Below, piece by piece: positions 39,387 to 64,000 of a stretch of DNA of 64,000 nucleotides. Origin of the DNA: a virus. Each line of letters opens with the position of its first letter. Within the stretch, counting starts at the first letter, position 1. The stretch is taken from the IMG/VR virus record IMGVR_UViG_3300021378_000004. One strand, 5' to 3'. The notes below the pieces were generated by a model that was given only the letters and a program-made list of their open reading frames with translations, did not search any database and was not told the origin of the DNA. The position numbers and the translations under genes are program-made.

Positions 39387-40349
39387 ATGTCAATTGATTA
39401 TAAAAGTAAAAGAAGATTTAAATCTTTTCAAAATAGAAAAGTAAGAGAAGCGCTACCTGAGTTTTATACTTCTGAATTTCCGACTTTAGTTACATTTCTA
39501 GAAAAATATTACAATTTTATAGATTCTGCTGATGGGACGCATGCCTTTGGAAGCAACGCCCAGCAGTTTTTTGCTAAAAAAGATATAAAAGAAATGCCAG
39601 CAAACTTACTTAATAATTTAGTTAGTGAGTTAGGTGGCGGTTTAAAAACAGGAGAAAATTTTACTGATACACGTTATGCTTTAACTAGACTAGCCGATCT
39701 TGCAAAACTAAAAGGCAGCAGATTCTCATTAGAAGAATTTTTTAGATTATTCTTTCAGCAAAAAGCTGAAGTTGAATATGGTAAAGAATCTATGTTTCTT
39801 ATTGGAGATTCAGCAAGTCAAATTGGAGTTGATTCAATAAAATTTATACAAAATAATGAACTCTTTCAAACTTTTGGGCTATTAATAAAATCAGAAATAT
39901 CTGTAGATACATGGAGTGAGCTTTATAAAAAGTTTGTTCATCCATCTGGTTTCTTTTTTGCAGGACAAGTTGTTTCTGATACTGAAGCTATAACTTCTCC
40001 AATTGGAGAAATATCAATACCAGATTCTGCAGCTGATCCTGTAATAATATCAGAAGCAATATTATCTGCAACGTTACCGTTTGTGCAATCAACTGTATTA
40101 ATTGATTCAGGTGGAGGTACAGTGAGATCTAATCTAAACGAGGTTGTGAGTGATTATCAAGACTTTACTTTAGCGCAATTAGATACAACTTATCATTCAG
40201 TCAAACAAGTTATAACACCTAATTCATTTACTTTTGATGACAGCAGTATTAGAGATAGCGATGAAAATGCAACTCCAGACTTCTCAATGACATTAGAAAC
40301 TATGGATAATCAAATATTTACAAGGCGTGTAACTGACTCGTCTTTCTAG
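39387..40349 (+). CDS. 7: baseplate wedge gp7-like (short)
   Basis: FLEKYY, KGS..S...FFR, FVHPSGF. Confidence 0.7.
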   Translation: MSIDYKSKRRFKSFQNRKVREALPEFYTSEFPTLVTFLEKYYNFIDSADGTHAFGSNAQQFFAKKDIKEMPANLLNNLVSELGGGLKTGENFTDTRYALTRLADLAKLKGSRFSLEEFFRLFFQQKAEVEYGKESMFLIGDSASQIGVDSIKFIQNNELFQTFGLLIKSEISVDTWSELYKKFVHPSGFFFAGQVVSDTEAITSPIGEISIPDSAADPVIISEAILSATLPFVQSTVLIDSGGGTVRSNLNEVVSDYQDFTLAQLDTTYHSVKQVITPNSFTFDDSSIRDSDENATPDFSMTLETMDNQIFTRRVTDSSF

Positions 40350-40357
40350 TATAAATA
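40350..40357 (+). promoter_or_regulatory. late promoter TATAAATA
   Basis: Exact consensus. Confidence 0.75.
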
Positions 40358-40378
40358 ACACTATAAGTAGGATAGCAA

Positions 40379-41320
40379 ATGACAAGACAAAATATAAACA
40401 TAGGTTCTTCAGCTAACGATGGAACAGGCGACACTTTACGTTCTGCAGGAACTAAGATAAATGCTAATTTTCAAGAAATTTATACACAACTTGGAGGAAA
40501 TAGCTCTACGCTTAGTGAATTAGTTAAATTAAAAGATTCAGCTACTATTGGTACTATACAATTTGAAGGAACAAGCGCAGACTCTCATGAAACAAAATTG
40601 ATTGCAACTAATCCTACTGCAGATAGAACAATTTCTTTGCCAAATGCAACTGGTACAATTATTTTACAAAATACTACAGACACTTTAACAAATAAAACTT
40701 TAACCACACCAACAATAGCATCTATAATAAATGGCGGTACAGTTACAATCCCTTCTGGTGCAGATACTTTAGTTGCTAGAACTTCAACAGACACTTTAAC
40801 AAATAAAACTTTAACCACACCAACTATAAATTCACCTATAATTGGCACTGCAATAAATGATGCAAATGGAAACGAAATTATAAAAATAACTGCAAACTCA
40901 AATGCTGTAAATGAGATAACAATTGCAAATGGTGCATCAATAACAGGTCCTACAATATCAGCAACAGGCAATGGAACAAATTTAAATTTACGTCTTGCAT
41001 CAAAGGGAACTGGATCTGTTAGTTTATCAAAAGCTTCTTTTACATCAGCTACAATTACAGCAAATGGTGCAGCAAATAGTGGTGTAACATACATAATAGG
41101 AAATAAAGGTTCAGCTCTTGCTGTAAGTTTAGCGGATGGAACCACTGTTGGAGAATATAAAATATTTACAAATAAAGGAGCAGGTGTAATGACTGTAACT
41201 CCTTCAAATTTTTCACAAGGAACAACGTTTGCACTTGCACAAAATGATGGATGTACTTGTATATGGGACGGGTCAAACTGGTTTCTTATAGGTAATCAAG
41301 GCGAAGTGACAGTAGCATAA
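40379..41320 (+). CDS. gp9/gp10-like baseplate-fiber connector
   Basis: INIG..ANDGTGDTLR...KIN.NF; TDTLTNKTL repeats. Confidence 0.75.
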   Translation: MTRQNINIGSSANDGTGDTLRSAGTKINANFQEIYTQLGGNSSTLSELVKLKDSATIGTIQFEGTSADSHETKLIATNPTADRTISLPNATGTIILQNTTDTLTNKTLTTPTIASIINGGTVTIPSGADTLVARTSTDTLTNKTLTTPTINSPIIGTAINDANGNEIIKITANSNAVNEITIANGASITGPTISATGNGTNLNLRLASKGTGSVSLSKASFTSATITANGAANSGVTYIIGNKGSALAVSLADGTTVGEYKIFTNKGAGVMTVTPSNFSQGTTFALAQNDGCTCIWDGSNWFLIGNQGEVTVA

Positions 41321-41331
41321 AGGAATAAGAT

Positions 41332-42726
41332 ATGGCAGCGATAATTACAGACTCTTTTAAGAAACAAATAGTTCAAACCGTATTTGATGAAGTTTCTTTT
41401 CCAGATTCAGCATCAACACATAGGTATTATATAGGAATAGGTAGATCCGAGCAATGGGATGATAGCGAAAACGTTCCTACAGTTACAGACGCTCCTAGAA
41501 CTATAAGAAATTTAAGAGCTGGATTACAATCAATAAAATCTGCAAGTGATGTAACTTTTACTATACCAAGATATAACTGGTCTTCTGGCGCAATATATTC
41601 AGCATATGATGATAATTTAGCATCTATTCCATTAACAAATAGCTATTACGTTCTTACTGAAGATAACCAAGTATATGTGTGTTTACAGCAAGGAAAATCA
41701 TCAACTGGTGTATCAACTACTTCCACAGTTAAGCCAACAGGAACATCTATAAAAGCTTTTAAAACTGCAGATGGTTATGTTTGGAAGTTTTTATATACAT
41801 TAAGTGCGTCAAGAGCAAATAAATTTCTCTCAGCAAATTTTGTGCCAGTTGAAAAAATATTAGATTCAGCTACACTAGGAAGACCTCATACAGTTTTAGA
41901 AAATCAACAACTTTTAATACAAAATGCAGGTGTTCCTGGCCAAATTATTGGTATTAATGTGACAAACGGCGGATCAGGATATACTGGTGCACCTATTGTA
42001 AGTATACATGGCGATGGTGTTAGAGCATCAGCAACTGCAATAGTATCAGGTGGAGCAGTTACAAAGATAGAATTAGATTCAAGTGCTGATAGCGGCCTTA
42101 CAATGGGTCAAGGATATAACTTTGCTAGTGTTACAATAGCAGCTCCTAGTGGATCTGGAATTATTGCTACAGCACGCGCAATATTAGGACCAGATAGTGG
42201 AATGGGCAATGATCCAAGAGATGAATTGAAATCAACATCATTAATGTTTAATACAAAACCAAATGGAATTGAGGATAGCAATTTTATAGTAGGTCAAAAT
42301 TTTAGACAAGTTGCTTTAATAAGAGATCCTAAAAAACCTACTACAGACTCTGATTTTTCTAATTCAAGTGGTAAAGTTTTAAGATTTTTAAAATTGCAAG
42401 CTACAGCAAATACTGGCTTTTTAAATGCAACAATAACAGGTGGAACCTCTGGAGCTAAAGCTTTAGTTGATGAAGTTGCTGGTGATAAATTATATTTTCA
42501 TCAAACAGAAGATACTGGATTTTTAGATTTTCAAGAAGAAGAAGGTATTGCTGGTGGTGGTCAAACTGGCACACTTATTGCAGAAGGAACTGACGCAGAC
42601 TCTGATGCATTTACACGAGACGACGTTAACAAGCTTTCCGGAAAAGTACTATATATAGAAAATAGAGCACCAGTAACTCGATCAGCTAATCAAACAGAAG
42701 ATATAAAAGTTGTGATAACACTTTAA
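41332..42726 (+). CDS. 8: baseplate wedge gp8
   Basis: PRYNWSSG, VYVCL, DGYVWKFLY, FRQVALI.DP, SG.VLYIENR. Confidence 0.88.
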   Translation: MAAIITDSFKKQIVQTVFDEVSFPDSASTHRYYIGIGRSEQWDDSENVPTVTDAPRTIRNLRAGLQSIKSASDVTFTIPRYNWSSGAIYSAYDDNLASIPLTNSYYVLTEDNQVYVCLQQGKSSTGVSTTSTVKPTGTSIKAFKTADGYVWKFLYTLSASRANKFLSANFVPVEKILDSATLGRPHTVLENQQLLIQNAGVPGQIIGINVTNGGSGYTGAPIVSIHGDGVRASATAIVSGGAVTKIELDSSADSGLTMGQGYNFASVTIAAPSGSGIIATARAILGPDSGMGNDPRDELKSTSLMFNTKPNGIEDSNFIVGQNFRQVALIRDPKKPTTDSDFSNSSGKVLRFLKLQATANTGFLNATITGGTSGAKALVDEVAGDKLYFHQTEDTGFLDFQEEEGIAGGGQTGTLIAEGTDADSDAFTRDDVNKLSGKVLYIENRAPVTRSANQTEDIKVVITL

Positions 42727-42737
42727 GGATATAAAAT

Positions 42738-45700
42738 ATGGCTACTACACTTACAAATTCAGTCTTTAATACAACTTATAAAGATGATTTTGCTGACAGC
42801 GCAGGATTTCATAAGATACTATTTAATTCAGGTAAGGCATTGCAGGCTCGTGAGTTAACTCAGCTTCAAACAATTTTACAAAATCAAATACAAAAATTTG
42901 GAAATAATGTATTTAAAGAAGGCGCTGTTGTTAAGCCCGGTGGCGCTAATTTAAATTCGCAATACGAATTTATAAAATTAAATACAACTATTAATACTCT
43001 TCCTGCTAATACTTCTACTATAACAACACCAGCAAGTAGTGCAAATATTTTTACAGGTGATACATCTAGTATTCAAGTTAAAGTCTTACAAGTAGTTACT
43101 GCTGCTGGTTCCGATCCCGATACTTTATATATTCAATATATGAATACGTCATCTGCTTCTTCAGGCGCAAATACACCTAGATTAACACCAGGCGAAAATA
43201 TAACTAATGGAACTGTAACGTTAACAGTTCAAACTACAAATACTTTGGATAATCCAGCAGTTGGTGTTGGTATACTTGCAACTTTATTATCTGGAATATA
43301 CTATGCAAGAGGACACTTTGTTTTTACTGAAGATCAATCAAAAATTATTTCAAAGTATAGTGATGTTAAAACAACAAATATAGGATTTAAAGCAATAGAG
43401 GATATTGTTTCTTCTATAGATGATGAAAGCTTATTTGATAATCAAGGTGCAGCTCCTAACTTAGCAGCTTCAGGCGCGGATAGATATAGAATTAAATTAA
43501 CAGTAGTTGAAGAAAGCGATGTTGATTCCGACGAAAATTTTATTCACGTAGCTACTGTAAAACAAGGTGCCATTTTCAACGCAGTAGATACAAATAACTC
43601 ATATAATATACCTAATGAAGTTATGGCAAAAAGAATTTTCGAAAATTCTGGTGATTATATTGTAAAACCGTATACTGTAGACTTTTCTTTAGATTCAGTG
43701 TCTACTCATCTAACATTAAATGTAAGTTCCGGCACAGCTGTTGTTGATGGGTTTAGAGCTCATAGAAGTTTTCCTACAACAATAAGAATTCAAAAACCAA
43801 CAGAAACAATAAGTTTAAATAACGATGTAATTGGTATCAACTACGGAAATTCTGTAATTGTAGATCCCAATACTGATTCTGCAACACGCGGTTTACCAAA
43901 CATAAATGTTTTTGAAAAGCTTACTTTAAAAGATAATTTAGACTTCACTGGTAATGACTTAGGGACTGTAAGAGTAAAAGCTATTAATGAAGATGGCTCA
44001 AATTTTAGATATCATTTATTTGATTTACAATTAAATTCTGGTTCTGCTTTTCGAAATGTTAAAAGTATTGGAACGAGTACTTCAAGCTATTTCAGACCTA
44101 CTTTAGAAAGCACAAAAGCTGTTTTAAAAGATGCGCAAAATAATACTTCTTTATTTAAACTAACGAGATTTAGACCTAAAGCATTAACAGATATTTCATT
44201 TGCAGCACAAAGAAGATTTACAGTAACTTCAAATGGTGCAGGTGAAGCTACAATAAGTGTTACAGCAGATGGTGAAACGTTTACAAATACAGACGATTGG
44301 GTAGTGGCTAAACAAGATAGTGATATATTCATTGGTGCTACAGCAAGCGGTGCTGGATCTACAGCTTCAACAATAACTGGCTTACCTGTTAGCAGCAGTT
44401 TAGAAATATTAGCTTATGTAAATAAAAGTCAAGCTTCTACAAAACAAAAAACATTAAATAATAAATCAATTACTATTAGTGTTGATAGTGACGGAAACGG
44501 CCTTAGAGTTATACCTCTTGCAACTGCTGATATTTTTGAAATAGATGAAGTGTTAAAAGAAAATGATAGTAGTGTTAGTTACGCTGATAGATTTGTTCTT
44601 GATAATGGCCAACGCGATAATTTCTATGGCCTTGGACGACTAATACTTAGAGGTGGACAATCTGCTCCAACAACAAATGTACATGTTAAATTTAAACATT
44701 TTACACATCAACCAGACGGCGATTTTTTTGCAGTAAACTCATACGCTGGTCAAGTAGATTATAATAGAATACCGAAATACAGATTTAGTAATGGTAAAGT
44801 CATAAATTTAAGAGACTACGCTGATTTTAGGCCAGTTATGGATTCTGGAGGAGAGTTTGTAGGAACTGCTGCTAGAGTAATTGAACAACCTCAAAATGGA
44901 ACTTTAGTTACTGCCGATGCAGAATATTATTTAAATAGAGCATCTAAATTAGTAGTTGATAGAGAAGGCGTTATTAGACTTATAAATGGAATACCGTCGT
45001 TTAATCCAGCCATACCAGAAAAACCAGATCAAACATTAGCGCTATATGATCTCATATTGCGTGGTAATACTGACGATGATTCTGATGTTACAGTAACAAA
45101 GATAGAGCATAAAAGATTTACTATGAAAGATATTGCTCAGCTTGAAAAAAGATTAGCAAATCTTGAAGAAGTTACTTCATTAAGTTTACTTGAAGTTGAT
45201 ACAAAGCATTTACAAGTTTTAGATTCTGCAGGTAATAATAGAACGAAGTCAGGATTTATAGTTGATAATTTTGCTGATCATTCTAAATCACATACGCTAG
45301 GCGGATACAGAGCAGCAATAGATCCTTTACAGCAAGAGCTTAGACCAAGTTTTAAAGAAGATAACATAAGACTTATATATGATTCAGCTTCATCTACAAA
45401 TACAATAAAAAAAGGTGATAACGTTTATATAGCTTACGACGAAACACCATATATCAATCAAAATTTTGCTAGTAAGGCTATTAAACTTAATCCATTTGCT
45501 GTAATAATATACGATGGCACAACTACTTTATCACCGTCATCAGATGAATGGAGAGATGTTGATAGAAGACAAGATAAAATAATACAAGGCGGCACAAGAT
45601 TATCAACTGTGAATGCTTATAATTGGAATAATTGGTCTTGGAGTTGGGGTGGAGTTTCTCTTGAAAATTTACAAGTAGGTTTTTCTACAAATGTTCAATC

Positions 45701-46460
45701 TGGCGTTGTAAATAGAATTGTTAGTGAAGAAACTGTTTTAGATTTAGTTGAAGATAGAGTTTTACAAACTGCATTTTTACCATTTATGAGAGCTAGAAAA
45801 GTTTTCTTTAAAGTTCAAGGATTAAGACCAAATACTCGAGTATTTCCTTTTTTAGATGGAAACAATATATCAGATTTTACAAGATCTGAAACATTTCAAT
45901 TCTATTCTGATACTAATATTGATTTCGGAAACACACTTAAAAACACAACTGCTCATCCAGATGGTTCAAGCAATTTGATCACTGATGCTAACGGCGATGT
46001 ATCAGGATCATTTATAGTTCCTAACAATGATACTTTAAAAATAAGAGTCGGTACTAAAGAATTTAAGATAATGGATATTAGTGCTGATAACGAAAAAAAT
46101 GCAGGTTGTATTGCAAAAGCGCCGTATTCAGCTGCAGGACTTTTAGACACAAAAGAAGCAACTTATTCTAGCACTAGACAATTAAATGTAACAAGTGTAA
46201 ACGTTCGAACTGCTTCAGTTTATCAAGGAGATGACGGCGGCGGTGGTGGCCCAACTCACGGCAGTGGAACAAAAGGCTCTTGGACAACTGGCCCAGAAGC
46301 ATTTGGAATTAGTCATAATCAGCAAGGTTATTCTTTCTCTGATGACGCTCAAGCAACTGACACTGGGTATGGAGCAGGTGATGATCCTACTGGTAATTCA
46401 GATGGTGGAAGTGACAATAGCGGAGGTGGAAATGCTAGTGATATGGGCGATGCAACATAA
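42738..46460 (+). CDS. DUF4815/VrlC-like large virion protein, N-terminal part
   Basis: Y.DDF, LQARELTQLQ, GADR, RFTMKDI..LEKR, KSGFIVDNF. Confidence 0.8.
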   Translation: MATTLTNSVFNTTYKDDFADSAGFHKILFNSGKALQARELTQLQTILQNQIQKFGNNVFKEGAVVKPGGANLNSQYEFIKLNTTINTLPANTSTITTPASSANIFTGDTSSIQVKVLQVVTAAGSDPDTLYIQYMNTSSASSGANTPRLTPGENITNGTVTLTVQTTNTLDNPAVGVGILATLLSGIYYARGHFVFTEDQSKIISKYSDVKTTNIGFKAIEDIVSSIDDESLFDNQGAAPNLAASGADRYRIKLTVVEESDVDSDENFIHVATVKQGAIFNAVDTNNSYNIPNEVMAKRIFENSGDYIVKPYTVDFSLDSVSTHLTLNVSSGTAVVDGFRAHRSFPTTIRIQKPTETISLNNDVIGINYGNSVIVDPNTDSATRGLPNINVFEKLTLKDNLDFTGNDLGTVRVKAINEDGSNFRYHLFDLQLNSGSAFRNVKSIGTSTSSYFRPTLESTKAVLKDAQNNTSLFKLTRFRPKALTDISFAAQRRFTVTSNGAGEATISVTADGETFTNTDDWVVAKQDSDIFIGATASGAGSTASTITGLPVSSSLEILAYVNKSQASTKQKTLNNKSITISVDSDGNGLRVIPLATADIFEIDEVLKENDSSVSYADRFVLDNGQRDNFYGLGRLILRGGQSAPTTNVHVKFKHFTHQPDGDFFAVNSYAGQVDYNRIPKYRFSNGKVINLRDYADFRPVMDSGGEFVGTAARVIEQPQNGTLVTADAEYYLNRASKLVVDREGVIRLINGIPSFNPAIPEKPDQTLALYDLILRGNTDDDSDVTVTKIEHKRFTMKDIAQLEKRLANLEEVTSLSLLEVDTKHLQVLDSAGNNRTKSGFIVDNFADHSKSHTLGGYRAAIDPLQQELRPSFKEDNIRLIYDSASSTNTIKKGDNVYIAYDETPYINQNFASKAIKLNPFAVIIYDGTTTLSPSSDEWRDVDRRQDKIIQGGTRLSTVNAYNWNNWSWSWGGVSLENLQVGFSTNVQSGVVNRIVSEETVLDLVEDRVLQTAFLPFMRARKVFFKVQGLRPNTRVFPFLDGNNISDFTRSETFQFYSDTNIDFGNTLKNTTAHPDGSSNLITDANGDVSGSFIVPNNDTLKIRVGTKEFKIMDISADNEKNAGCIAKAPYSAAGLLDTKEATYSSTRQLNVTSVNVRTASVYQGDDGGGGGPTHGSGTKGSWTTGPEAFGISHNQQGYSFSDDAQATDTGYGAGDDPTGNSDGGSDNSGGGNASDMGDAT

Positions 46461-46478
46461 AATTTTAGGAGATATAAT

Positions 46479-48059
46479 ATGGCAGTAACTTCACTAGGTT
46501 ACAAAGCAAATAAACAACCAATAGCTCAATCGTTCTATATTGATGCGCCTAATGGAATATATTGTACAAAGGTTGATTTGTTTTTTAGTGCAAAAGATAG
46601 CACTTTACCAGTTCAATTACACTTAAGGCCAATGGTTCAAGGTTTTCCATCAGCAAGTGAAATAATTCCAGGATCACAAGTGACATTAGCTAGTTCTAGT
46701 ATAAACGTTGATACAGTCGGGCCAGACTTAAATGCAACTTCATTTGCATTTGATGAACCTATTTTTTTAAAAGGTAAAGAAGATTATGCTCTTGTAGTAA
46801 CAGCAGATTCAAAAGATTATGAAATATACATAGCTGAGATTAATGAATTTACTTTTGGTTCTACTGAAAGAAGAGTTAATAAAAATCCAATTACTGGAAG
46901 TTTGTTTTATTCTCAAAACTCTGCTACTTTTACGCCTTCTCAAAATCAAGACTTAGCTTTTGTTTTACATCAAGCAAAATTTAAGCATACTACTGCAAAT
47001 GTTATTTTACACAACGCTTCTGTTTCAAAAAGAAAGTTAAACAACAATGCTTTAAAAACAACTTCAGGAAGTCAAACTGTAACAGTTAATCATTTAAATC
47101 ATGGTTTAGAAGTTGGTAATAAGGTTACTATATCTGGTGCTACCGCTGGTGGTGGAATGTTAGCTTCATCAATAAATGGAGCTAGAACAGTGGTTGCAAA
47201 GGATTTTACTGGATATACTTTTAATGCAGATTCTGCAGCTGATTCTGATGCTATAGCTGGAGGCGCAAATATACTAGCAGATAGAAACATACCATATAGT
47301 TTAATATATCCAAACATACAACTGCTAAAACCTAAAGATACGTTTATTGATGCTGGAATGAAAGCCGTGACTGGGAAGTCATTTGCAGGTGATGAACCAG
47401 CATTTCAAAAAGCTTCTACCTTTGAAGGAATTCAAATAAATCAAAACAATGCTGCTTCTAAAGTTTATTTAATTGCTCACGATTCTGCTGAAATTGCAGA
47501 ACTAGAAGCTGGGGAAAAATCACTTGACGTTCAACTAAATCTTAGTACTAATGATTCCAACGTTTCTCCTATGTTAGACTTACAAAGAACATCGATGTCG
47601 TTATTTAGCACGCTTATTGATAGGCAATACGATTCATCAGTAACATCACCTGGAGAATTCAATGCTCCACTTAATTTTGTTAATGAAACTTCACCTACTA
47701 CAGGAAGTTCAGCGGCAAGGCACATTACTAAAGTTTATTCTTTGCAAACTGACGCAGTAGGTCTTAAAGTATTAATTGATGCCAACGTTCCAGATGCAGC
47801 AGACTTTCAGTTGTATTTTAGAACTGCGTCAGCTGACGAAAATATTTTTACTAAAAATTACACGCTACAGACTTCTGATAATATTTTACCAAAAGATAAT
47901 AATCCTAATGTATTTAGAGGATACGAATTTTTAATTGGTGGTCAAGGCGGATCAATGGTTGCTTTTACAAAGCTTCAATTAAAAATAGTAATGAGAAGTA
48001 CAAATCAGGCTATAGTTCCTAGATTTAGAGCGCTTAGAATAATAGCATTGAGTGTATAA
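46479..48059 (+). CDS. DUF4815/VrlC-like virion protein, C-terminal part
   Basis: PIAQSF, T.VDLFF, GSLF.SQN, VSP.LD. Confidence 0.75.
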   Translation: MAVTSLGYKANKQPIAQSFYIDAPNGIYCTKVDLFFSAKDSTLPVQLHLRPMVQGFPSASEIIPGSQVTLASSSINVDTVGPDLNATSFAFDEPIFLKGKEDYALVVTADSKDYEIYIAEINEFTFGSTERRVNKNPITGSLFYSQNSATFTPSQNQDLAFVLHQAKFKHTTANVILHNASVSKRKLNNNALKTTSGSQTVTVNHLNHGLEVGNKVTISGATAGGGMLASSINGARTVVAKDFTGYTFNADSAADSDAIAGGANILADRNIPYSLIYPNIQLLKPKDTFIDAGMKAVTGKSFAGDEPAFQKASTFEGIQINQNNAASKVYLIAHDSAEIAELEAGEKSLDVQLNLSTNDSNVSPMLDLQRTSMSLFSTLIDRQYDSSVTSPGEFNAPLNFVNETSPTTGSSAARHITKVYSLQTDAVGLKVLIDANVPDAADFQLYFRTASADENIFTKNYTLQTSDNILPKDNNPNVFRGYEFLIGGQGGSMVAFTKLQLKIVMRSTNQAIVPRFRALRIIALSV

Positions 48060-48268
48060 TGGCTTTACTTAAGGTTGAAGGCCATACTGATTATTTAAAA
48101 GACACAAATACTGGTGTAGTACATAATAATAACACTAGTGAAATTGAAGCAGCTCGTATGAGAAAAACTCAAAAAAAGCAACAGCAAGAGGATATAAATA
48201 ACCTTAAGAACGAAGTTAATGATATAAAAAAAATGTTAACACAAATTGTAGAGAAATTAAATGGCTAA
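48059..48268 (+). CDS. small coiled-coil protein
   Basis: KVEGH...KD..TG; typical neighbour of DUF4815 genes. Confidence 0.7.
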   Translation: MALLKVEGHTDYLKDTNTGVVHNNNTSEIEAARMRKTQKKQQQEDINNLKNEVNDIKKMLTQIVEKLNG

Positions 48269-49910: not shown

Positions 49911-49931
49911 TTATTATTATTGGAGTTTATT

Positions 49932-54559: not shown

Positions 54560-54567
54560 TATTTATA
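54560..54567 (-). promoter_or_regulatory. late promoter TATAAATA driving the tailoring operon
   Basis: Exact consensus 5 nt upstream of the ATG at 54554. Confidence 0.75.
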
Positions 54568-54994: not shown

Positions 54995-55003
54995 GTATTT
55001 TAA

Positions 55004-55858
55004 ATGGCTACTGATAAAATCCGAGTAAAGGTTGCTGGAAATTCTGAAATAAAGATTTCTGAAGGCCAAACCATTGTCAAGAAAATTGTTGTAGGCACGC
55101 CTATTCGCAATGTCATACAAACTGGCAATATTCTCGATAGTGCCAGTGGAATAGTCATAAATGGTCCTCTTAAACCGACTGACCATATTATCCCAAGTAA
55201 TAATGAACTCATTGATCTAGGTAGTATTAATAATAGATTTAGAAGTCTTTATCTTTCTGGAGCAACTTTATTTGTTGGTGATCTTGCTTTAAGCGATTCT
55301 GGTGGAAATTTATTAATTAGTAATATTGATGCTAGTGGAAATATTATTAGTAGCACTCAAAGATCTCTTGCAACTGTTGATTCTGACCAAATTATTGCTA
55401 CTGTTACTCCAAAGATTGATTCTGCGGTTAACGCATTAATTGATGCAGCACCAGATCAGCTAAACACTTTAAATGAATTAGCTGCAGCGTTAAATGATGA
55501 TTCAGATGCGTTTAATAGTCTTTTAACAAAGATTAATGCAGGAGTTAGAGCAGCAGCTGCAGAATTAGACAGTATAGGCGCTGATCAAATAATCGATACT
55601 TTTTCAAGTACTGAGTTTAGAACTGTGAAATATTTGGTGCAATTGGAACATGATTCCGATAATAAATATCACTCTTCAGAAATTATATTGACACACAATG
55701 GAACTAATGTATTTTTAACTGAATACGCTGAAGTAAAAACAGATTCTTCTCTTGGCATATTTAATGCCAATATTGTAAATAATAATATTACAATTACTCT
55801 TTCGCCTTCGTATACTAACACAGATTTTAAAGCAAAAAGGATCAGTGTAGATGCGTAA
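55004..55858 (+). CDS. fiber-related virion protein
   Basis: DLGS...RFR.LYLSG; AP..LNTL.ELAAAL.DD. Confidence 0.7.
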   Translation: MATDKIRVKVAGNSEIKISEGQTIVKKIVVGTPIRNVIQTGNILDSASGIVINGPLKPTDHIIPSNNELIDLGSINNRFRSLYLSGATLFVGDLALSDSGGNLLISNIDASGNIISSTQRSLATVDSDQIIATVTPKIDSAVNALIDAAPDQLNTLNELAAALNDDSDAFNSLLTKINAGVRAAAAELDSIGADQIIDTFSSTEFRTVKYLVQLEHDSDNKYHSSEIILTHNGTNVFLTEYAEVKTDSSLGIFNANIVNNNITITLSPSYTNTDFKAKRISVDA

Positions 55859-55861
55859 TGT

Positions 55862-55869: not shown

Positions 55870-55899
55870 GTATTAATAATTTTACTGTAGGAATAGATT

Positions 55900-56208
55900 A
55901 TGGCTATTAAACAAAATTTTATAGTTAAGTCAGGTCTTGAAGTAGCAGATTCGGCAACAGTCGGAGGAGTTTTTAAGGCATCCGGCTTACAGTATCCTAC
56001 AGCAGACGGTAATAACAATGAGGTTATAAAAACAAACGGTGGTGGCTCTTTAAGTTTTGGAACTTTAAGAATTCGTGATTTAAGTGATGTCGATTTAAGT
56101 ACCCTTCAAGAAGAAGGTCTTTTGATTTTTGATTCAGCTACTAACACATTCCAAGCCAGAAATGAAATAATTGGTGCGGATTTAAATTCAGATGGGGGTT
56201 TCTACTAA
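55900..56208 (+). CDS. small fiber-related protein
   Basis: YPTADG...KTNG.G.LSF; ends DGGFY. Confidence 0.65.
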
Positions 56209-58982
56209 TGGCATCAATAATTAAGATCAAAAGATCGGGGACCGGTGGCGCACCATCAACCCTAAAACTAGGAGAATTAGCGTATTCGTATCTTGCGGGA
56301 ACACAGGGCAACGGAGGTGACCGATTATATATCGGTACTGGCGGTGTCGACGGGTCGGGTAATGCTAATGAAATTGAAGTTGTTGGTGGAGTCTATTTTA
56401 CTGACAAATTAGATCACACACCTGGAACTTTAACAGCATCTAGTGCACTTATAGTTGATGCTTCTAGTAAAATTGATGTAATAAACGTTGATAATATTAC
56501 AATTGATGCTAATACAATATCAACAACTGATACAAATGGTGCTCTTGTTCTTTCACCAAATGGAACTTCGGCAGTTAACGTACCAGCCGGTTATAAAGAT
56601 CGTAGTGGATTTGGTACTAACTCTTTAGCAACAAAAGAATATGTTGATACTGTTGCTGGTGCAACTACACTTACTTTTAAGGCTGATTCTTCTGGATCAG
56701 ATTCTATTGATTTAGATGCTGATACACTTGCAATTACTGGTAACGCTAGTACTGGTATTAGTACTATAAGATCGGCGAATGCTGTCAATATTAGTCTTGA
56801 TAATACTGCAGTTACTCCTGCATCATATGGTTCTGCATCAGCAATTCCAACATTTACTGTAGATGCACAAGGTAGATTAACAGCTGCTGGCACAGTTAAT
56901 ATTTCAACTGATCTTTCAGTTGCTGGTGATACTGGAACTGATACAGTTAATCTTCTTGATTCTGATCTTACGTTTACTGGTGGAACAGGTATTGCAACAG
57001 CAGTAACGAATAACGTTGTTACTATTAATGGTACTAATGCTACAACAAGTGCTAAAGGTATTGCATCATTTAGTTCTGATAATTTTGCGGTTTCCAGCGG
57101 CGTAGTAACTATTAAAAATGGTGGAGTTGTAGCAGCTGAATTAGCAGCTACTCTTGATCTCTCTGGAAAAAGTGTTACACTTGGAGCAGGTGAAATTAGT
57201 AATGGTGAATTGGCAAACAGTAGTATTACAGTTTCTGGTGAAACAATTGCGCTTGGCGGATCAGCCACACTAGCAACAACAAATGTAACTGAAGGTACAA
57301 ATTTATATTATACCACAGCAAGAGCAGATAGCGATGCTAAAAATGCAGTATCTGTTACTGATAATGGTGGTGATGGATCATTATCTTATAATGCATCAAA
57401 TGGTGTATTTACGTATACAGGCCCATCTGCAGCAGAAGTAAGAGCACATATTAGTGCTGGCGAAGGTATTGATATAGCTTCAGGCGTAATATCTGGGGAA
57501 GATGCTAGTACAACAAATAAAGGTATTGCATCCTTCAGTGCTGATCATTTTTCTGTAGGAGCTGGCGCAGTAACCATTAAAGCTGATGGAATAGATGCAA
57601 CACACCTTGATTTTGGTACTGGAACAGATCAAATTGCTACAGCTGATATTCCAGAACAAACTAATTTATATTACACTACAGCAAGAGCAGATAGCGATGC
57701 TAAAAATGCTATTAGCGTTAATTTTGTAAGTGGTGATGGCGCTGCTGCCTATAACGCAGGAACTGGTGTAATCTCAATTACTGGTCCTTCTGCAACTGAA
57801 GTAAGAGCGCATATCACTGCTGGAACTGGTGTAACAATAACTGACGGTGAAATTGCACTTGCTCAAGCACTCGGACCAACAGATAATGTTCAATTTGCTG
57901 ATCTTCAAGTAGATGGTAATACAGTTATTGATGGTAGCCTTACAGTAAATGGTACAACAACTACAATAAACACAGCTACAGTAACAACTAATGATCCGTT
58001 GTTTAATCTTGCTGATTCTAATACTACAGCAGATACATTGGATATTGGTTTTATTGGTAAATATTTAGATACTGGCGAATCTAGAGTCGAACGTACTGGT
58101 CTTTTTAGAGATGCGTCAGACGGTCAATATAAACTTTTTACAGGTTTACACAATCCTGGTGGAACACTTGATAGTGCCACTAATACTGTTGATATTACTG
58201 GAACAGGATTTACGTATGCAGATTTAAGAGTTGGTGTTCTTACTGGTAATGTAACAGGCAATGTTACTGGTACAGTTTCTGATATATCAAATCATTCAAC
58301 TAGTGATTTAAGTGAAGGCACTAATCTTTATTATACTACTGCAAGAGTTGATTCAGACTTAGGTCAAATACTTACAGCTGGCGAAGGTGTTGATATCACT
58401 GAAGGCGCAGGTATTATTACAATTGCGGGCGAAGACGCTAGCGTAACAAATAAAGGTATCGCATCTTTTGCTACTGCAAATTTTACAGTATCATCTGGTG
58501 CAGTTTCATCTAAAGATATTACATTAAATGGTGGATCCGGAAATGCATCTGCAACACTTGGCGAATCATTTACAATTACAGGTAATGCTTCTCAAGGAAT
58601 TAGCACTAGTGCAACAGGCACAACCGTTACAGTTACAGCAGCTGATGCTGCGGCTGACGGAAGTACAAAGGGTGTTGCTACATTTAATGCAACTAACTTC
58701 AATGCATCTTCTGGTGTTATTACAACCACTGATGTTACACTTTTTTCAGGTGATACTACTAATGGTCAAGGTGGCGGAATAGCTGCAACTAATGGTGAAT
58801 CTTTTAATATTTACGGTGATTTTGGTCAAGGTATTACAACAACAATTACTAGTGGTAACCTTATAGTTACTGGTAGAAATGCTACAAAGAATTCAAAGGG
58901 TGTTGCATCATTTGATTCAGATATGTTTACAGTAACAACAGGAGCAGTAACACTTGCAACAGTAGACGGCGGAAGTTATTAA
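56208..58982 (+). CDS. long tail fiber-like protein
   Basis: IKIKRS..GELAY N-terminus; EGTNLYYT and KGIASF repeats; ends DGGSY. Confidence 0.8.
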
Positions 58983-59045
58983 TATATAGTCAAGTAGTTT
59001 TTTAATTATTTGACTCTAAAATAAAACCTTTTTTAAGGAATCGAT

Positions 59046-61559
59046 ATGACGACTAGCATTAAGCTAAAAAAGTCCAGTATTTCCGGACGCATACCATCAA
59101 CTAGTGATCTCGATTATGGCGAATTAGCCATTAACTATGCAGATGGTATATTATATTTTAAAAATTCTAGTAATCAAGTTAGTAGTATTAACGCTCGAGC
59201 AATAGGCGTTGATTCCACTGCAACTTTTTCTATTATCGATTCTGCATATATTGAATCTAGAGTTGGTAACACAACAAATATAGCAGAAGGTACCAATCTT
59301 TATTACACTTCAACGCGCGCTGATAGTGATGCTAAAAATGCAATAAGTGTTAGCGATGCTGGTGGGGATGGAGCATTATCTTACAATTCAACAACTGGTG
59401 TATTAACATATACTGGTCCAAGTGCAGCAGAAGTAAGAGCACATTTTAGTGCAGCCGGTGATATAACTTATAATTCTAGCACTGGGCAATTTAGTTTAGA
59501 TGTAGAATCAGTATACACCGCTGATAATTTTGATAGTGACTATATATTAGCAAAAGATTCTGCAAATACAGCTGTTGAAAGAAATAAGCATGACGCTACA
59601 ACTAAAAACTTTTCTGTAACAGTTGCTTCAAAAACTGCTGATCATGTTTATAACGGCACAGGAAGTGGCAGTGGTTATGTTATAGATGGTACTCAGTCAC
59701 CAATAGTACAACTACAAATAGGAAGAACATATCGTTTTACTCTTAGTTCAAGTGATATGTCAAATCACCCATTTAGATTTTATTATGATGCAGGAAGAAC
59801 TACACAATATACTACTAACGTAACAACTACGTCTACGTACGCTGAAATTGAAATAACAGAATCCACACCTACAGTATTACATTATCAATGTTCAGCGCAT
59901 GGTTATATGGGACATGCATTTGTAATTGGCACACGTAACTTAACTGGATTTAATACTGACAATTTATCTGAAGGTTCAAGTAATGTATACTACTCAAATA
60001 CTCGTGTTGAAACTTTGGTTGATTCTTCATACGTTCAATCAAGGCAAATAAACAATCCAACTGGGGTTGATTCATCTGCTACTATTGATCTAGTTGATTC
60101 AGCATATGTACAAGCCAGGCAAATAAACAATCCAACTGGTGTTGATTCATCTGCTACTATTGCTCTTGTTGATTCTTCATATGTTCAATCAAGGCAAATA
60201 AACAATCCAACTGGTGTTGATTCATCTGCTACTATTGCTCTTGTTGATTCTTCATATGTTCAATCAAGGCAAATAAAATATACTAATGATGATTTTGCTG
60301 ATTCAGCATTTGTTACTTCACAAATTAATAGTTTAATTGATGCTGCTCCTGGCGCTCTTAATACATTAAATGAACTTGCTGCAGCAATAGGTGATGATGC
60401 TAATTTTAGTACAACTGTTACAAACTCTATTGCCACTAAGCTCACTTCTGCACAAGCTACTAATTTAATAGACTCAGCTTATGTCCAATTAAGACAAATA
60501 AATAATCCATCTGGTGTAGACTCATCTGCTACTATTGATCTAGTTGATTCAGCTTATGTGCAAGCCAGACAAATAAACAATCCAACTGGTGTTGATTCGG
60601 CCGCCACTATTGCTCTTGTTGATTCAGCGTATGTTCAATTAAGACAAATTAATAATCCATCTGGTGTAGATTCTGCTGCTACTATCGATCTTGTTGACTC
60701 AGCTTATATTCAATCTAGACAAACAACTACACCAAGTGGTGTAGATTCAGCAGCAACAATTGCTTTAGTCGATTCAGCTTATGTAAATGCTTTTACTATT
60801 GATGCTAATACATTAAATGGTCAAAATGCTTCTTATTATTTAGATTATGGTAATTTAAATAATGTACCAAGTGAATTTACTGACTCAAGTACAGTTGACA
60901 GTATTATTTTAAATGTTGTTGATTCAGCATATGTACAAACTAAGTTTGGCACTCTTAGAGAAAGTAATAATTCACTAGTTGTTTCTGGAAGTATTATACC
61001 AGAAACTGATAGTGCATTTAGTCTCGGTACTGCGCAAAAGAAATTTAAAGATTTACATTTATCAGGTGGTACAGTTTTTCTTGATAATCTTGCTTTATCC
61101 GCAGATCCTGCTACACAAACTATTAATATAGGTCAAATTGACAGTATTGGTATTGTTAATGTTGTTGGTGTTATAGCAACTGTTGATTCTGCTGGAGTTT
61201 CTGCCATTGTTGACTCTGCGTTTTTAGAAGCTAGATTAGGAGACTTTGTATCAGAAACAGAATTAACATCTAAAAATTTTACTACTTTTGATTCTGCTGA
61301 TGCGACTAGTGTTATCGATTCAAGTTATATAAATAGTCTTAATGCGGATGCTGGAGCTTTAAATGGTCAGAGTGGCGCGCACTATTTGGACTATAATAAT
61401 TTTACAAATACACCCCAAGGCGGTGTTGATTATGGCACCGTGATTCAATCAGCAACTAGTGCTATTGATATACTTGATATACTTATTGCACAGACTACTG
61501 TAGATTATGGAACCGTGGGTTCACCTGGTAGTTTAAAATCTAATTACGGAACACTATAA
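59046..61559 (+). CDS. tail fiber-like protein with 25-aa DS repeats and cupredoxin-like insert
   Basis: IKLKKS..GELAINYADG N-terminus; internal repeats; YQCSAHGYMG. Confidence 0.8.
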   Translation: MTTSIKLKKSSISGRIPSTSDLDYGELAINYADGILYFKNSSNQVSSINARAIGVDSTATFSIIDSAYIESRVGNTTNIAEGTNLYYTSTRADSDAKNAISVSDAGGDGALSYNSTTGVLTYTGPSAAEVRAHFSAAGDITYNSSTGQFSLDVESVYTADNFDSDYILAKDSANTAVERNKHDATTKNFSVTVASKTADHVYNGTGSGSGYVIDGTQSPIVQLQIGRTYRFTLSSSDMSNHPFRFYYDAGRTTQYTTNVTTTSTYAEIEITESTPTVLHYQCSAHGYMGHAFVIGTRNLTGFNTDNLSEGSSNVYYSNTRVETLVDSSYVQSRQINNPTGVDSSATIDLVDSAYVQARQINNPTGVDSSATIALVDSSYVQSRQINNPTGVDSSATIALVDSSYVQSRQIKYTNDDFADSAFVTSQINSLIDAAPGALNTLNELAAAIGDDANFSTTVTNSIATKLTSAQATNLIDSAYVQLRQINNPSGVDSSATIDLVDSAYVQARQINNPTGVDSAATIALVDSAYVQLRQINNPSGVDSAATIDLVDSAYIQSRQTTTPSGVDSAATIALVDSAYVNAFTIDANTLNGQNASYYLDYGNLNNVPSEFTDSSTVDSIILNVVDSAYVQTKFGTLRESNNSLVVSGSIIPETDSAFSLGTAQKKFKDLHLSGGTVFLDNLALSADPATQTINIGQIDSIGIVNVVGVIATVDSAGVSAIVDSAFLEARLGDFVSETELTSKNFTTFDSADATSVIDSSYINSLNADAGALNGQSGAHYLDYNNFTNTPQGGVDYGTVIQSATSAIDILDILIAQTTVDYGTVGSPGSLKSNYGTL
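60016..60790 (+). repeat. 75-bp (25-aa) coding tandem repeats in two blocks
   Basis: Unit VDS(A/S)YVQ(A/S/L)RQINNP(T/S)GVDS(S/A)ATI(A/D)L, about 3+4 copies with synonymous variation. Confidence 0.9.
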
Positions 61560-61566
61560 ATAACTA

Positions 61567-61574
61567 TATAAATA
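61567..61574 (+). promoter_or_regulatory. late promoter TATAAATA
   Basis: Exact consensus. Confidence 0.75.
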
Positions 61575-61591
61575 TAGGTTAGAGGAATAAA

Positions 61592-64000
61592 ATGGCATTA
61601 CAATTTAGACGCGGTACAGATTCAGATAGACTAACTATCACCCCGGCAGCTGGTGAACCTATTTTTACCAGTGATACAAAAGAACTTTTTATAGGTGACG
61701 GTTCAACTACAGGCGGTATTGATCTTATCACTACAAAATTAGGAAGTATTTCTGGAGACATTATACCAGATACAGATAGTACGTATGATCTTGGTTCACC
61801 TACTAAGAAATTTAAAGATTTACATTTAAGTGGAAACTCTATATTTTTAGGTGCTGGATTAGTACTTTCTAATGATGGTGGTACATTTGCAGCTAAAGAT
61901 TCAGATAACAATCCAGTCGTTATATCGTTAACTAGTAACAACACAGGCCAATTATCTGAAGGTACAAATTTATATTATACGACAGCACGCGCAGATAGTG
62001 CATTTGATGTAAGATTAGCAACTAAAACAACAGCTAATATAACAGAAGGTTCTAACTTATACTTTACTAATGCTCGAGCAGATGCCAGAATAACAAATGC
62101 ATTACTTGATGAAGATAATATGGCATCAAATAGTGCTACTAAAATTCCATCACAGCAATCTGTTAAAGCTTATGTTGATGCAGAAGTTGCAGGAATAGTT
62201 GATACTGCTCCAGCAGCACTAAATACATTAAACGAATTAGCAGCTGCGCTTGGCGATGATGCTAACTTTAGTGCTACAATAACTGCTCAAATTGGAGCAA
62301 AATTAGATTCAGCAGAAGCAATATCTCTCATAGATTCTGCTTATGTACAAGCAAGGACAACTGCTGGCACAGATTCAGCTGCTACAATATCACTAATAGG
62401 AGCAACTGTAGACTCAGCTTATGTACAAGCAAGACAAACATCAGGCGGCGGTAGTAGTATTGATTCAGCTGCAACAATTGCTTTAATTGATTCATCTTAT
62501 GTACAAGCAAGACAAGTTGATCCAGTTTCAGCATTCACTACTGTATCAGTTACTGGTCAAACAGATATTGTTGCAGACGCAGATGCCGCAGTGCCAGATT
62601 GGACGTCAGGAACACAACAAGCTAAAATTATAAGAGTTCCTTTTGCAAACATTATGAGTGGTGATGGTTTTGGTAGAAGTCCAAGTTTAAGCACTAATGG
62701 TAATTATGCTGTTGTTGGTTCTGGCAAATCCAGTAATAACAGAGGTGCTATACATTTTCTGTCTAGATCCGGATCTACATGGACTTATGGTCAGATGATA
62801 AATAGAACAGGTGGACATGCATCTGATTTTACAGGTTTTGGCGATCATGTGGTTATGTCAAATGACGGCACAATTGCACTTGGTGCTGCTCAGTATGATC
62901 CTAGTGCAGCCAACGCTTCTTATGCAACGGGAGTAGTTTACCTTTTTACAAGAACCGGTTCCACGTGGTCACAACATTCCGCCATAGAACCCACATCTCC
63001 TAGTCCAGTTACCAATGATATGAGATTTGGTGCGTCAGTTGATATTAGTGGAGATAATCAGTATATAGTAATAGGAGGACCTGGCAACAATAAAGGTGTA
63101 TACATATACATAAATGATGGCTCAGGTAATTTTTCATTACAACAAAAACTAACAACATCAAATAGTGGAGATGACTATGGTGGTGGTGTAGCTATTGATG
63201 AAGATGGTAATACAATTGTTGTGAGTCATCAAGGTTCAGGATCTACAGGAAAGATTTACACATATGTAAGATCTGGTACAAATTGGACATTACAACAAAC
63301 AATAGCTCCGTCAGGAGCAGTAGATATTGGTTGGGATGATCGAAAAGGAAAAGGCGTAGCTATATCAAGTGATGGTAATAGAATAGCTTTTGGTAGTGGT
63401 GGAATATACAGTACTGGATCTTCTATATACATCTGGAATAGATCTGGTACAACTTGGACTCAGGAACAGAACATAACTCCATCTCATACAGTTGGTTCTG
63501 GCACCAACCAGGTTTTAAGATTTGGCCAAAATGTTAGTTTAAGCAATGATGGTACTCGTCTTGTAGCAGGTACTGATAGATTTAACACGCTCAGTCATGC
63601 AGAAACAGGTATAACATATGTTTTTACTAGAAATGGTTCAGGTGTATGGAGTGAGTCTAAAATATTATCTCCAAGCGATTTAGCTTCAGAAGATCAATTT
63701 GGTCTTGGTGCTAATATATCTGGAGATGGAACAACAATATTAAGTCATTCTAAATTAGCAGACTTAGTAGACGGTAGTGATACATATACAAATGCTGGGG
63801 CAGTATATGCGTTTACAGCGCCAGTAGGAAATCCATTACAAGATACTCTTACATTTGAAGCTGGTGCTGGAATAACTATTACAACTAATGCCACCACTGA
63901 TACAGTTACAATTGCTGGATCAGCAGCTGGTTTAGATTCAGCAAGTACAACTGCTTTAGTCGATTCAGCATATGTTCAAGCAAGACAGACTTCTGCCGGT
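61592..64000 (+). CDS. long tail fiber with Mtd-like N-terminus and FG-GAP-type beta-propeller (3' partial)
   Basis: Hand-translated MALQFRRGTDSDR..GEP...ELFIGDG; frame consistent at every segment checked up to the window end. Confidence 0.85.
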   Translation, partial: MALQFRRGTDSDRLTITPAAGEPIFTSDTKELFIGDGSTTGGIDLITTKLGSISGDIIPDTDSTYDLGSPTKKFKDLHLSGNSIFLGAGLVLSNDGGTFAAKDSDNNPVVISLTSNNTGQLSEGTNLYYTTARADSAFDVRLATKTTANITEGSNLYFTNARADARITNALLDEDNMASNSATKIPSQQSVKAYVDAEVAGIVDTAPAALNTLNELAAALGDDANFSATITAQIGAKLDSAEAISLIDSAYVQARTTAGTDSAATISLIGATVDSAYVQARQTSGGGSSIDSAATIALIDSSYVQARQVDPVSAFTTVSVTGQTDIVADADAAVPDWTSGTQQAKIIRVPFANIMSGDGFGRSPSLSTNGNYAVVGSGKSSNNRGAIHFLSRSGSTWTYGQMINRTGGHASDFTGFGDHVVMSNDGTIALGAAQYDPSAANASYATGVVYLFTRTGSTWSQHSAIEPTSPSPVTNDMRFGASVDISGDNQYIVIGGPGNNKGVYIYINDGSGNFSLQQKLTTSNSGDDYGGGVAIDEDGNTIVVSHQGSGSTGKIYTYVRSGTNWTLQQTIAPSGAVDIGWDDRKGKGVAISSDGNRIAFGSGGIYSTGSSIYIWNRSGTTWTQEQNITPSHTVGSGTNQVLRFGQNVSLSNDGTRLVAGTDRFNTLSHAETGITYVFTRNGSGVWSESKILSPSDLASEDQFGLGANISGDGTTILSHSKLADLVDGSDTYTNAGAVYAFTAPVGNPLQDTLTFEAGAGITITTNATTDTVTIAGSAAGLDSASTTALVDSAYVQARQTSAG

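Follow-up and report, generated by a model that had tools for sequence, protein, structure and literature searches.

A putatively selected D-S-[A/D/S] tag on exposed virion proteins of marine T4-like phages, a candidate acceptor for phage-encoded O-glycosylation

Glycosylation of tailed-phage virions has been reported for few systems, among them the mycobacteriophages Che8 and Rita (Freeman et al. 2023, as cited in passages of PMC11256854 and PMC12619734). In bacteria, the general O-glycosylation of the Bacteroidota recognises D-(S/T)-(A/L/V/I/M/T) in non-cytoplasmic proteins (PMC12871550), and staphylococcal SdgB and SdgA, an initiating and an extending enzyme, O-glycosylate serine from nucleotide sugars with DSD as the minimal motif (PMC8561734). 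For the GT8 genes of pelagimyophages, the relevant passages of PMC7029224 propose remodelling of host lipopolysaccharide and exclusion of other phages. Our literature search returned no paper giving a sequon for tailed-phage virion glycosylation, none on Asp-Ser O-glycosylation of phage tail fibers and none on C48C1, a phage used below for comparison.

The window analysed here is a 64,000-nucleotide stretch of IMG/VR virus record IMGVR_UViG_3300021378_000004. A preliminary description had noted that the dipeptide DS is over-represented from gp7 onward in outer baseplate and fibre proteins, and had proposed that it is a sequon of the Bacteroidota type, written by neighbouring late glycosyltransferases (GTs). 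Downstream of VrlC the window is a variable fibre and GT island lying between VrlC and the neck genes (a host recognition cluster). The features are as follows.

37560..39386, plus strand: gp6 of the inner baseplate wedge, serving as internal negative control (DS 2 vs 4.3 by shuffle)
39387..40349, plus: short gp7-like wedge subunit, 8 DS (Pfam PF23786)
40379..41320, plus: gp9/10-like connector, 2 DS (PF07880)
41332..42726, plus: gp8 wedge protein, 10 DS (PF09215)
42738..46460, plus: VrlC-like (DUF4815) N-terminal part, 11 DS (PF16075)
46479..48059, plus: VrlC-like C-terminal part as its own gene, 7 DS (DS count, orthologue comparison)
48261..48887, plus: small fibre-like protein with a single VDSAYIQARQ unit, 5 DS
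48891..49910, plus: protein ending in a tail of aromatic-(T/S)-G-x repeats
49920..50351, plus: small gene separating the repeat-tail and 50341 GT genes
50341..51042, plus: GT-A glycosyltransferase, GT8/GT77-like, DxD at 84-86 (Atlas features, structure)
51042..51656, plus: gene after the 50341 GT, in the same order in relatives (locus comparison)
51648..54554, minus: variable cassette, patchy across relatives, with a late box at 54567
51648-52247, minus: possible methyltransferase with a GGxxG motif
52238-52957, minus: GT-A glycosyltransferase-like (PHROG glycosyltransferase match, E 1e-11)
52948-53580, minus: cassette gene without family match
53558-54265, minus: radical SAM
within 51648..54554, minus: 98-aa gene of the cassette
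54641..54994, plus: LtfC-like beta-sandwich, 3 DS (PF23926, E 5e-4, under the curated cut-off)
55004..55858, plus: fibre/connector protein, 8 DS (PHROG tail-fibre matches)
55900..58982, plus: two fibre proteins, of 102 aa (2 DS) and 924 aa (9 DS)
59046..61559, plus: 837-aa tail fibre, 31 DS (PHROG matches, DS count)
61592..64000, plus: 1886-aa Mtd_N/FG-GAP fibre, only its start in the window

Family searches with the 51042, 51648 and 52948 genes gave zero matches. The DS system extends beyond the window end, the 1886-aa fibre having 12 DS inside the window and 29 across the whole gene.

Recounting reproduced the earlier hand counts for the listed late proteins, gp6 and RNR. Corrected for composition by shuffling, DS pooled over 13 late proteins stood at 112 vs 50.1, the highest of all dipeptides (z 8.7). 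Taken singly, gp7 (8 vs 2.5, p 0.0025), gp8 (10 vs 3.1, p 0.0005), the 55004-55858 protein (8 vs 2.4, p 0.002) and the 837-aa fibre (31 vs 9.1, an excess of 5 SD where about 3 had been estimated) are enriched; the 48261-48887 protein is not significant alone (5 vs 2.4, p 0.065), and those starting at 42738 (11 vs 8.7), 56208 (9 vs 7.0) and 40379 (2 vs 1.1) are individually weak. RNR (2 vs 3.0) is, like gp6, as DS-poor as had been claimed. Across all 19 outer and fibre proteins of the walked genome we counted 175 DS vs 98, with no enrichment of SD (111 vs 98). The excess goes beyond tandem repeats, as the preliminary description had held: after removal of later copies of repeated 12-mers from these 19 proteins it was 96 vs 63 (P 7.5e-5) and DS was still the top dipeptide. 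A codon- or DNA-level artefact was ruled out, DS being written by eleven different codon pairs. Clade-wide avoidance of DS in non-virion proteins was considered and dropped (observed/expected 0.78 here, 0.78-0.92 in tag-free genomes).

The true excess is of D-S-[A/D/S], not of DS as such. In this phage's own outer proteins DS[ADS] reaches 135 vs 28 and near-misses are rare (DT[ADS] 7 vs 27; ES[ADS] 1 vs 10), the [ADS] rule having been derived from the same clade on which it was tested and orthologues being non-independent counts. Among the window proteins the residue following DS is constrained (observed/expected: DSA, the commonest form, 45/4.8; DSD 22/3.8; DSS 19/5.4), DS[ILVMT] is not enriched (11/16.2), and DT[ADS] and DT[ILVMT] stand at 3 vs 14.6 and 19 vs 17.3. 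Neither NS[ADS] nor the reversed SD[ADS] is enriched. Depletion of DT[ADS], strong in this genome, was rejected as a clade trait (clade 0.70 vs controls 0.72-0.86).

These figures tell against the Bacteroidota sequon that had been suggested. The targets here are T4-type virion proteins, which assemble in the cytoplasm; DT[ADS] is depleted, DS[ILVMT] unenriched and DSD common, so that combined use of D-S and D-T is not seen and the third residue overlaps that sequon at A and S only. For the Bacteroidota machinery, substrates are non-cytoplasmic, DT is a valid site and the third residue is preferably hydrophobic (PMC12871550). The 269-aa gene described below is found on contigs binned in 13 GTDB genomes, 8 of them labelled Bacteroidota or Balneolaceae, but low-GC binning is weak host evidence, and we regard the writing of the tag by such a host's own D-(S/T) O-glycosylation as highly improbable. 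A search for a host name through the Bmp protein returned none.

The tag is carried by a large clade of uncultured marine T4-like phages. Pooling gp7, gp8, VrlC and LtfC gives 285/55 for this clade, against 11/33 for the C48C1 lineage and 15/20 for outgroup isolates. Because the outer-baseplate excess is missing from the C48C1 lineage and from eight cultured relatives, the gp7, gp8 and VrlC folds do not need the tag. No tag-rich isolate was found. The C48C1 lineage is nested (starred support 100/99), with the AU test leaving an alternative standing (p 0.113), and formal proof of tag loss there was not obtained.

Across relatives, gp7, gp8, VrlC, fibres, sheath, gp14, gp15 and capsid are marked. 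The sheath (228/72, over 43 different alignment columns) ranks first of 100 comparable classes and gp15 (90/11) first of 123; capsid and gp14 are among the top 4. Hidden proteins seldom carry the tag, as terminase (0/27), scaffold (1/13) and inner baseplate (7/30) show, the last being depleted in the C48C1 lineage as well (0.39). The tail tube is nearly tag-free; this was not retained as special, 37 of 178 classes being equally low. The 24 gp6 orthologues have 1.6 vs 3.8 DS per sequence and zero conserved DS columns. There are 6 such columns among 28 gp7 orthologues (full-length ones in the C48C1 lineage hold 0-2 DS) and 9 in the N-terminal part of VrlC, and orthologues of the gp9/10-like connector carry 4.3 DS per sequence. 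On an AF2 model of gp8 (pLDDT 87, T4 gp8-like fold) 8 DS lie in predicted loops, as had been anticipated, and 2 at helix starts; over 53 orthologues with 449 DS, 334 are at coil-coil positions and 45 at a helix start. Flanks of conserved DS are less conserved than those of other turn-type dipeptides (0.58 vs 0.665; P 0.018). Taking as exposed what secondary structure and T4 architecture indicate to be so, these data support the view that on exposed virion proteins DS acts like a short motif under selection. This much of the surface-sequon proposal stood (clade-specificity, loops, variable flanks, positional turnover); its Bacteroidota identity and its neighbouring writers were not supported.

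If the origin were purely structural, nothing would be attached: DS would be a motif for helix N-caps, beta-layers or turns, preferred by chance in this clade, multiplied by repeats and passed on by descent. Many gp7 and gp8 sites are indeed fixed columns, but gp7, gp8 and VrlC orthologues in the C48C1 lineage and the eight isolates are tag-free, gp8 sites are mostly in loops, sheath sites are dispersed, the equally good caps DT[ADS] and NS[ADS] are not enriched, and hidden proteins are tag-poor. We consider it unlikely as a general account; it probably holds for the fibre shafts alone, judging from their repeats. In the 837-aa fibre, DS falls mostly in GVDSxATIxLVDSxYV repeats (18 distinct contexts) and recurs as hydrophobic-V-D-S at dominant spacings of 9 and 16, fitting a beta-layer N-cap, so that this protein, the headline evidence of the preliminary description, loses that place. 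Similar DS-rich fibre repeats occur in C48C1, G011 and G012, which lack the 269-aa enzyme; enzyme-negative phages give 31/17.7 and 27/14.0 for fibre DS, and hold 2-3 DS[ADS] in sheath. In beta-layers the third residue, nearly always D, N, T or S, serves as cap for the following helix, and the nonads of alpha/beta coiled coils share with the fibre shafts a period-9 hydrophobic-hydrophobic-cap pattern, with aliphatic-A-T-K as their consensus (PMC4786415). DS in fibre shafts is probably in part structural, but beta-layer nonads give no explanation for loop sites in globular wedge, sheath and neck proteins.

As to the writers, the two GT-A-like genes reported in the late region exist, and so does a further tailoring gene, the radical SAM. 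The 50341-51042 protein matches GT8/GT77-like structures (TM 0.76-0.78). The two GTs do not, however, behave as tag writers. The 50341 and 51042 genes are missing from G035, whose genome is complete and tag-rich, and from the corresponding spot in G002/G004; both have homologues in tag-free genomes (50341 at 32-34% in C48C1/G011/G012). This GT does not track the tag, and its partner is a different repeat protein, the 48891..49910 repeat-tail protein, found two genes upstream of it in 15/15 loci. The 52238 GT is patchy (22-66%), with no match in G004, G006 or G037 and a 27% match in C48C1.

A better candidate writer, from its distribution, is a 269-aa GT8-like gene (L237:8081-8890) about 63 kb past the window end, the first gene of a distal glycosylation cluster. 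All 11 clade genomes that span this region have it (61-78% identity), with no match in C48C1, G011, G012 or HTVC008M and zero among 50,697 deposited phage records. Of seven baseplate-bearing contigs with the gene, six chosen by it alone plus G006, six show the tag at 3.9-6.2 fold; G039 has the gene and little tag (7 vs 3.7, P 0.08). Co-occurrence is statistically weak because tag and enzyme change jointly only about twice on the tree, and class II RNR, ThyX and two hub-region genes, among others, share the same genome profile. The protein model (pTM 0.89) has a GT-A fold; D96 and D98 of the DxD and a C-terminal H247 are invariant in 67 homologues, several of which match PF01501. In a wide fold comparison it is most like 2p6w, a capsid glycosyltransferase of PBCV-1 (Z 16.8, rmsd 2.9, 194 aligned). 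A late box, TATAAATA, lies 447-583 bp upstream in 41/80 loci (476 bp for the L237 copy), and the gene is probably expressed late. Counting against an initiator role, several of the nearest solved folds (UGGT, XXYLT1, LgtC) belong to enzymes that lengthen existing glycans; A64R, too, extends glycans, and none of these initiates them on protein. Two further distal-cluster genes were rejected as specific writers, having homologues in tag-free HTVC008M/G011 (218-aa gene) or in C48C1/G011/G012 (206-aa gene).

The cluster also resembles lipo-oligosaccharide genes, containing GT8, GT25 and sialyltransferase-like genes typical of that synthesis. Its GTs might therefore remodel host lipopolysaccharide against other phages, the tag being an unrelated clade trait. 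We think this very unlikely: the outside-only pattern would be left without account, and the conserved late box would suit virion assembly better than early exclusion. Quite unlikely, too, is a surface signal bearing no sugar, either a binding site for Ca2+/Mg2+ or a small decoration protein, or an acceptor of phosphate, polyol-phosphate or an acyl group added by a different phage enzyme. The acidic, hydroxyl-rich DSD/DSS loops, the nucleotidyltransferase, methyltransferase and RuBisCO-like protein of the cluster and the clade profile common to two hub-region genes would fit such a signal, but the commonest form, DSA, is a poor metal ligand, residue order is strict, and these alternative enzymes are patchy in tag-rich genomes where the 269-aa GT is constant.

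Our preferred reading, on which we are evenly divided, is that D-S-[A/D/S] is a recognition tag serving as acceptor for phage-encoded cytoplasmic serine O-glycosylation. Selection would keep the tag on the virion outside in this one clade; late in infection the 269-aa enzyme would add a sugar to tagged serines or to an attached core, and the variable GTs and sugar enzymes of the cluster would extend the glycan, so that baseplate, fibres, sheath, neck and capsid are covered by a phage-specific coat; the same DS letters would double as a beta-layer helix cap in fibre shafts. Computation shows the enrichment, the rule for the third residue, the limitation to one clade, the contrast between outer and inner proteins, the turnover of sites and the joint occurrence with the 269-aa gene, together with the fold and late box of the latter. 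We infer the covalent modification, the identity of the group as a sugar, the enzyme as initiator and any function, be it shielding, adhesion or host range. More tentatively, this widely sampled clade may own a sequon-directed system of cytoplasmic protein O-glycosylation in which one conserved GT8-like reader of D-S-[A/D/S] and a hypervariable cluster build a strain-specific coat at very many sites per particle. If true, the many GTs of marine T4-like phages that are unexplained and at present attributed to host lipopolysaccharide would gain a role, and a widespread ocean phage group may have particles coated in sugar, which could affect adsorption, grazing and proteomic detection. A small, soluble enzyme would also become available, together with its three-residue tag.

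Among known systems, PBCV-1 has the solved fold nearest to that of the 269-aa enzyme and virus enzymes that decorate the virion, but has a eukaryotic host, and identity is 13%. PBCV-1 capsid glycans are N-linked, and the 2p6w domain extends rather than starts them. The VrlC-to-neck island, fibres, GTs and radical-SAM cassettes recall the host recognition cluster of pelagimyophages and cyanomyophages, whose GTs are assigned to host lipopolysaccharide, with DS motif and virion glycosylation unmentioned in the relevant passages (PMC7029224); HTVC008M, a cultured member of that group, has neither tag nor 269-aa gene. Che8 and Rita share with this clade phage-encoded GTs, and there structural-protein glycans are reported to form a shield; in the passages cited, these sit on the C-terminal ends of capsid and tail-tube subunits, unlike the internal tripeptide here, much repeated over about a dozen proteins with the tail tube almost free. 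SdgB/SdgA (PMC8561734) also use a serine acceptor and a three-residue motif, but are GT-B (GT4) enzymes acting on long SD repeats, whereas the 269-aa candidate has a GT-A fold and the tag sites are dispersed and mostly DSA. Finally, the Bacteroidota system (PMC12871550) differs in its periplasmic en-bloc transfer and in the residues accepted, and is alike in placing an aspartate before the acceptor serine and in joining a conserved core to variable outer-glycan genes.

The dipeptide Asp-Ser (DS) is strongly over-represented in the late structural proteins encoded in the window, which is part of a T4-like (Kyanoviridae-related) phage of 33% GC and contains, in this order, a class II ribonucleotide reductase region, the baseplate genes and a fibre island. 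In 13 such proteins DS is the highest-ranked dipeptide (112 against 50 expected), and the hand counts of the preliminary description were correct, save for the SD count in the fibre, which is 5 and not 3. We walked ENA contig ERZ27251098 k141_43389, which encodes proteins 100% identical to those of the window where the two overlap; exact 200-base overlaps gave a stitched genome of about 140 kb, and further extension added about 9 kb. In its outer and fibre proteins DS occurs 175 times against 98 expected, and the excess outlasts repeat masking, DS remaining the top dipeptide (96 against 63). No excess is seen in its inner baseplate (observed/expected 0.71), whole head/neck module (0.98) or non-virion proteins (0.78).

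DSA, DSD and DSS account for the entire excess, and the enriched unit is the tag DS[ADS], Asp-Ser followed by Ala, Asp or Ser (135 against 28 in outer proteins of this phage). DS had originally been taken for a Bacteroidota-type O-glycosylation sequon, an assignment that fails the membership tests, with DS rarer than expected before I, L, V, M or T and no enrichment of DT forms; action of a Bacteroidota host's glycosylation system on the tag appears extremely improbable. A literature search found no paper describing the motif. The phage also encodes a Bmp-family ABC substrate-binding protein (L234:15319-16338), which has numerous near-identical homologues in metagenomes and might give a clue to the host.

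The pattern is genuine, sharply defined and present throughout the clade. DS lies above expectation (z 2.0–6.4) in the outer proteins of all 80 viral contigs whose gp8 is 44–92% identical, with no comparable excess in their gp6; in eight deposited phages that carry homologous modules DS is not in excess (observed/expected 0.69–1.13). The lineage of phage C48C1, the nearest deposited relative (gp8 identity only 36%), retains short gp7, gp8 and VrlC, yet has 11 tags against 33 expected, compared with 285 against 55 in the tag clade; the tag is a clade trait and not a requirement of the folds. Many clade members have VrlC (window 42738-48059) split into two genes (about 1240–1370 and 520–530 aa); other members, like the C48C1 lineage, have one gene of 1,620–2,130 aa. 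The class II ribonucleotide reductase (window 16999-19212) is 82–96% identical in several relatives and was not found in the C48C1 lineage. The two long fibre-like proteins of one relative (L169) contain little DS (1 against 7.9 and 2 against 10.4), possibly a second loss of the tag.

For a comparison of virion proteins, relatives (up to 75) were retrieved through their sheath gene. The tag is enriched 3.2-fold in the sheath, 8.5-fold in gp15, 4.0-fold in gp14 and 4.2-fold in the capsid, against 0 of 27 expected in the terminase, 1 of 13 in the scaffold and 1 of 11 in the tube; because the orthologues are related, the counts are not statistically independent. Set against comparable tripeptide classes, the tag is number one in both sheath and gp15 and among the four highest in both capsid and gp14; in terminase and scaffold it comes close to last, while its low count in the tube is not exceptional. 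Judged by T4 architecture, from which the outward facing of these proteins is taken, the tag marks the particle exterior. Sites in the sheath are spread over 43 different alignment columns, so tag positions turn over.

Retention of DS pairs across aligned orthologues is 0.40–0.76, mostly exceeding that of comparable pairs, and the residues around them show lower conservation than the flanks of other turn-type dipeptides (P 0.018). In the predicted gp8 model (pLDDT 87) loops hold 8 of the 10 DS sites, as the preliminary description had anticipated, and the other two are at helix starts. In the 837-aa fibre, DS sites in 18 distinct contexts recur at intervals of 9 or 16 residues, a spacing consistent with beta-layer coiled coils, where the third residue of the beta-layer caps the helix that follows (PMC4786415). 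Since the spacing fits and DS-rich fibre repeats also occur in phages without the 269-aa candidate enzyme (below), fibre DS is at least partly structural, and the case for the tag therefore rests on the globular proteins. That DS is a structural motif throughout we consider unlikely; the tag is probably a selected surface signal.

Modification by neighbouring late glycosyltransferases had also been proposed. The genes concerned are:
48891-49910 (+), aromatic-(T/S)-G repeat-tail protein
50341-51042 (+), predicted GT-A enzyme
51042-51656 (+), gene with no family match
51648-54554 (-), minus-strand cassette
This proposal is not supported: the complete, tag-rich genome G035 lacks both the GT-A gene and the gene that follows it, tag-free C48C1, G011 and G012 have homologues of them, and the minus-strand cassette is patchy among relatives. 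The GT-A gene sits two genes behind the repeat-tail protein in 15 of 15 loci, tag-less ones included, and belongs to a repeat-tail module (48891-51656 (+), with a small gene and the gene at 51042), whose repeat tail it may modify. In G002, G004, G035, G038 and G041 the gene at this position lacks the repeat tail, and the glycosyltransferase was not found.

A better candidate for writing the tag, a 269-aa gene, belongs to a second set of genes about 63 kb beyond the window end:
L237:8081-16161, distal glycosylation cluster
L237:8081-8890, GT8-like 269-aa gene
L237:10600-12422, RuBisCO-like protein (362 aa) beside a nucleotidyltransferase, found only in G003 among relatives checked
Besides the 269-aa gene, the cluster holds variable glycosyltransferases and sugar enzymes, the latter a methyltransferase, a RuBisCO-like protein and a nucleotidyltransferase. 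Two GT25 genes and a 218-aa GT-A are also present, as is a 206-aa gene whose sialyltransferase-like match is weak. Another locus, in the replication region (L235:12438-17955; DUF1599, thymidylate-synthase-like, dCMP deaminase, a 370-aa gene, galactopyranose mutase-like GLF, epimerase, DNA-methylase-like; partly common to C48C1), is probably a DNA base-modification system, so the distal cluster need not serve DNA. Close to the far end of the contig that we walked is a third enzyme cluster (L258:3635-8719: nitroreductase, TauD-like and fatty-acid desaturase-like genes, with several small ones).

The 269-aa gene has 2,404 homologue clusters. In most relatives it stands at the head of the stretch of cluster-type genes, and in half of 80 loci a T4-type late box precedes it by about 450–580 bp. 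Its predicted model (pTM 0.89; DxD invariant) is similar to UGGT, XXYLT1 and LgtC, the top match being the PBCV-1 capsid glycosyltransferase (Z 16.8). All 11 clade genomes that span this region carry the gene; it is missing from C48C1, G011, G012 and HTVC008M and has no match among 50,697 phage records. Contigs L431-L443, which carry it within 13 GTDB genome bins of mixed taxonomic labels, are most likely mis-binned phage contigs. Of six baseplate-bearing virus contigs picked by this gene alone, five carry the tag at 3.9–6.2 fold and G039 has little of it; G006 has it at 4.1 fold. The fibre island is a known host recognition cluster whose glycosyltransferases were ascribed to host LPS (PMC7029224); that the enzymes act there and the tag is unrelated seems to us very unlikely.

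In trees the tag-free, enzyme-free C48C1 lineage is nested within the tag clade with starred support, and this nesting suggests joint loss of tag and gene, while the AU test does not reject an alternative placement (p 0.113). Tag–enzyme co-occurrence comes down roughly to a single gain, a single loss and a single exception, and some six other ORFs share the gene's presence/absence profile. A tag for a non-sugar ligand or modification is a decidedly slim prospect, and we put at even chances that the tag is a serine O-glycosylation site written by the phage. Several of the nearest solved relatives of the 269-aa enzyme extend glycans and do not start them; its role as initiating transferase is tentative, somewhat doubtful.

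The proposed glycosylation mechanism is plausible. A tiny Asp-Ser motif is shared with SdgB, although by membership tests the phage system falls outside SdgA/B. In its proposed mode of working it resembles virion glycosylation in chloroviruses and in mycobacteriophages.
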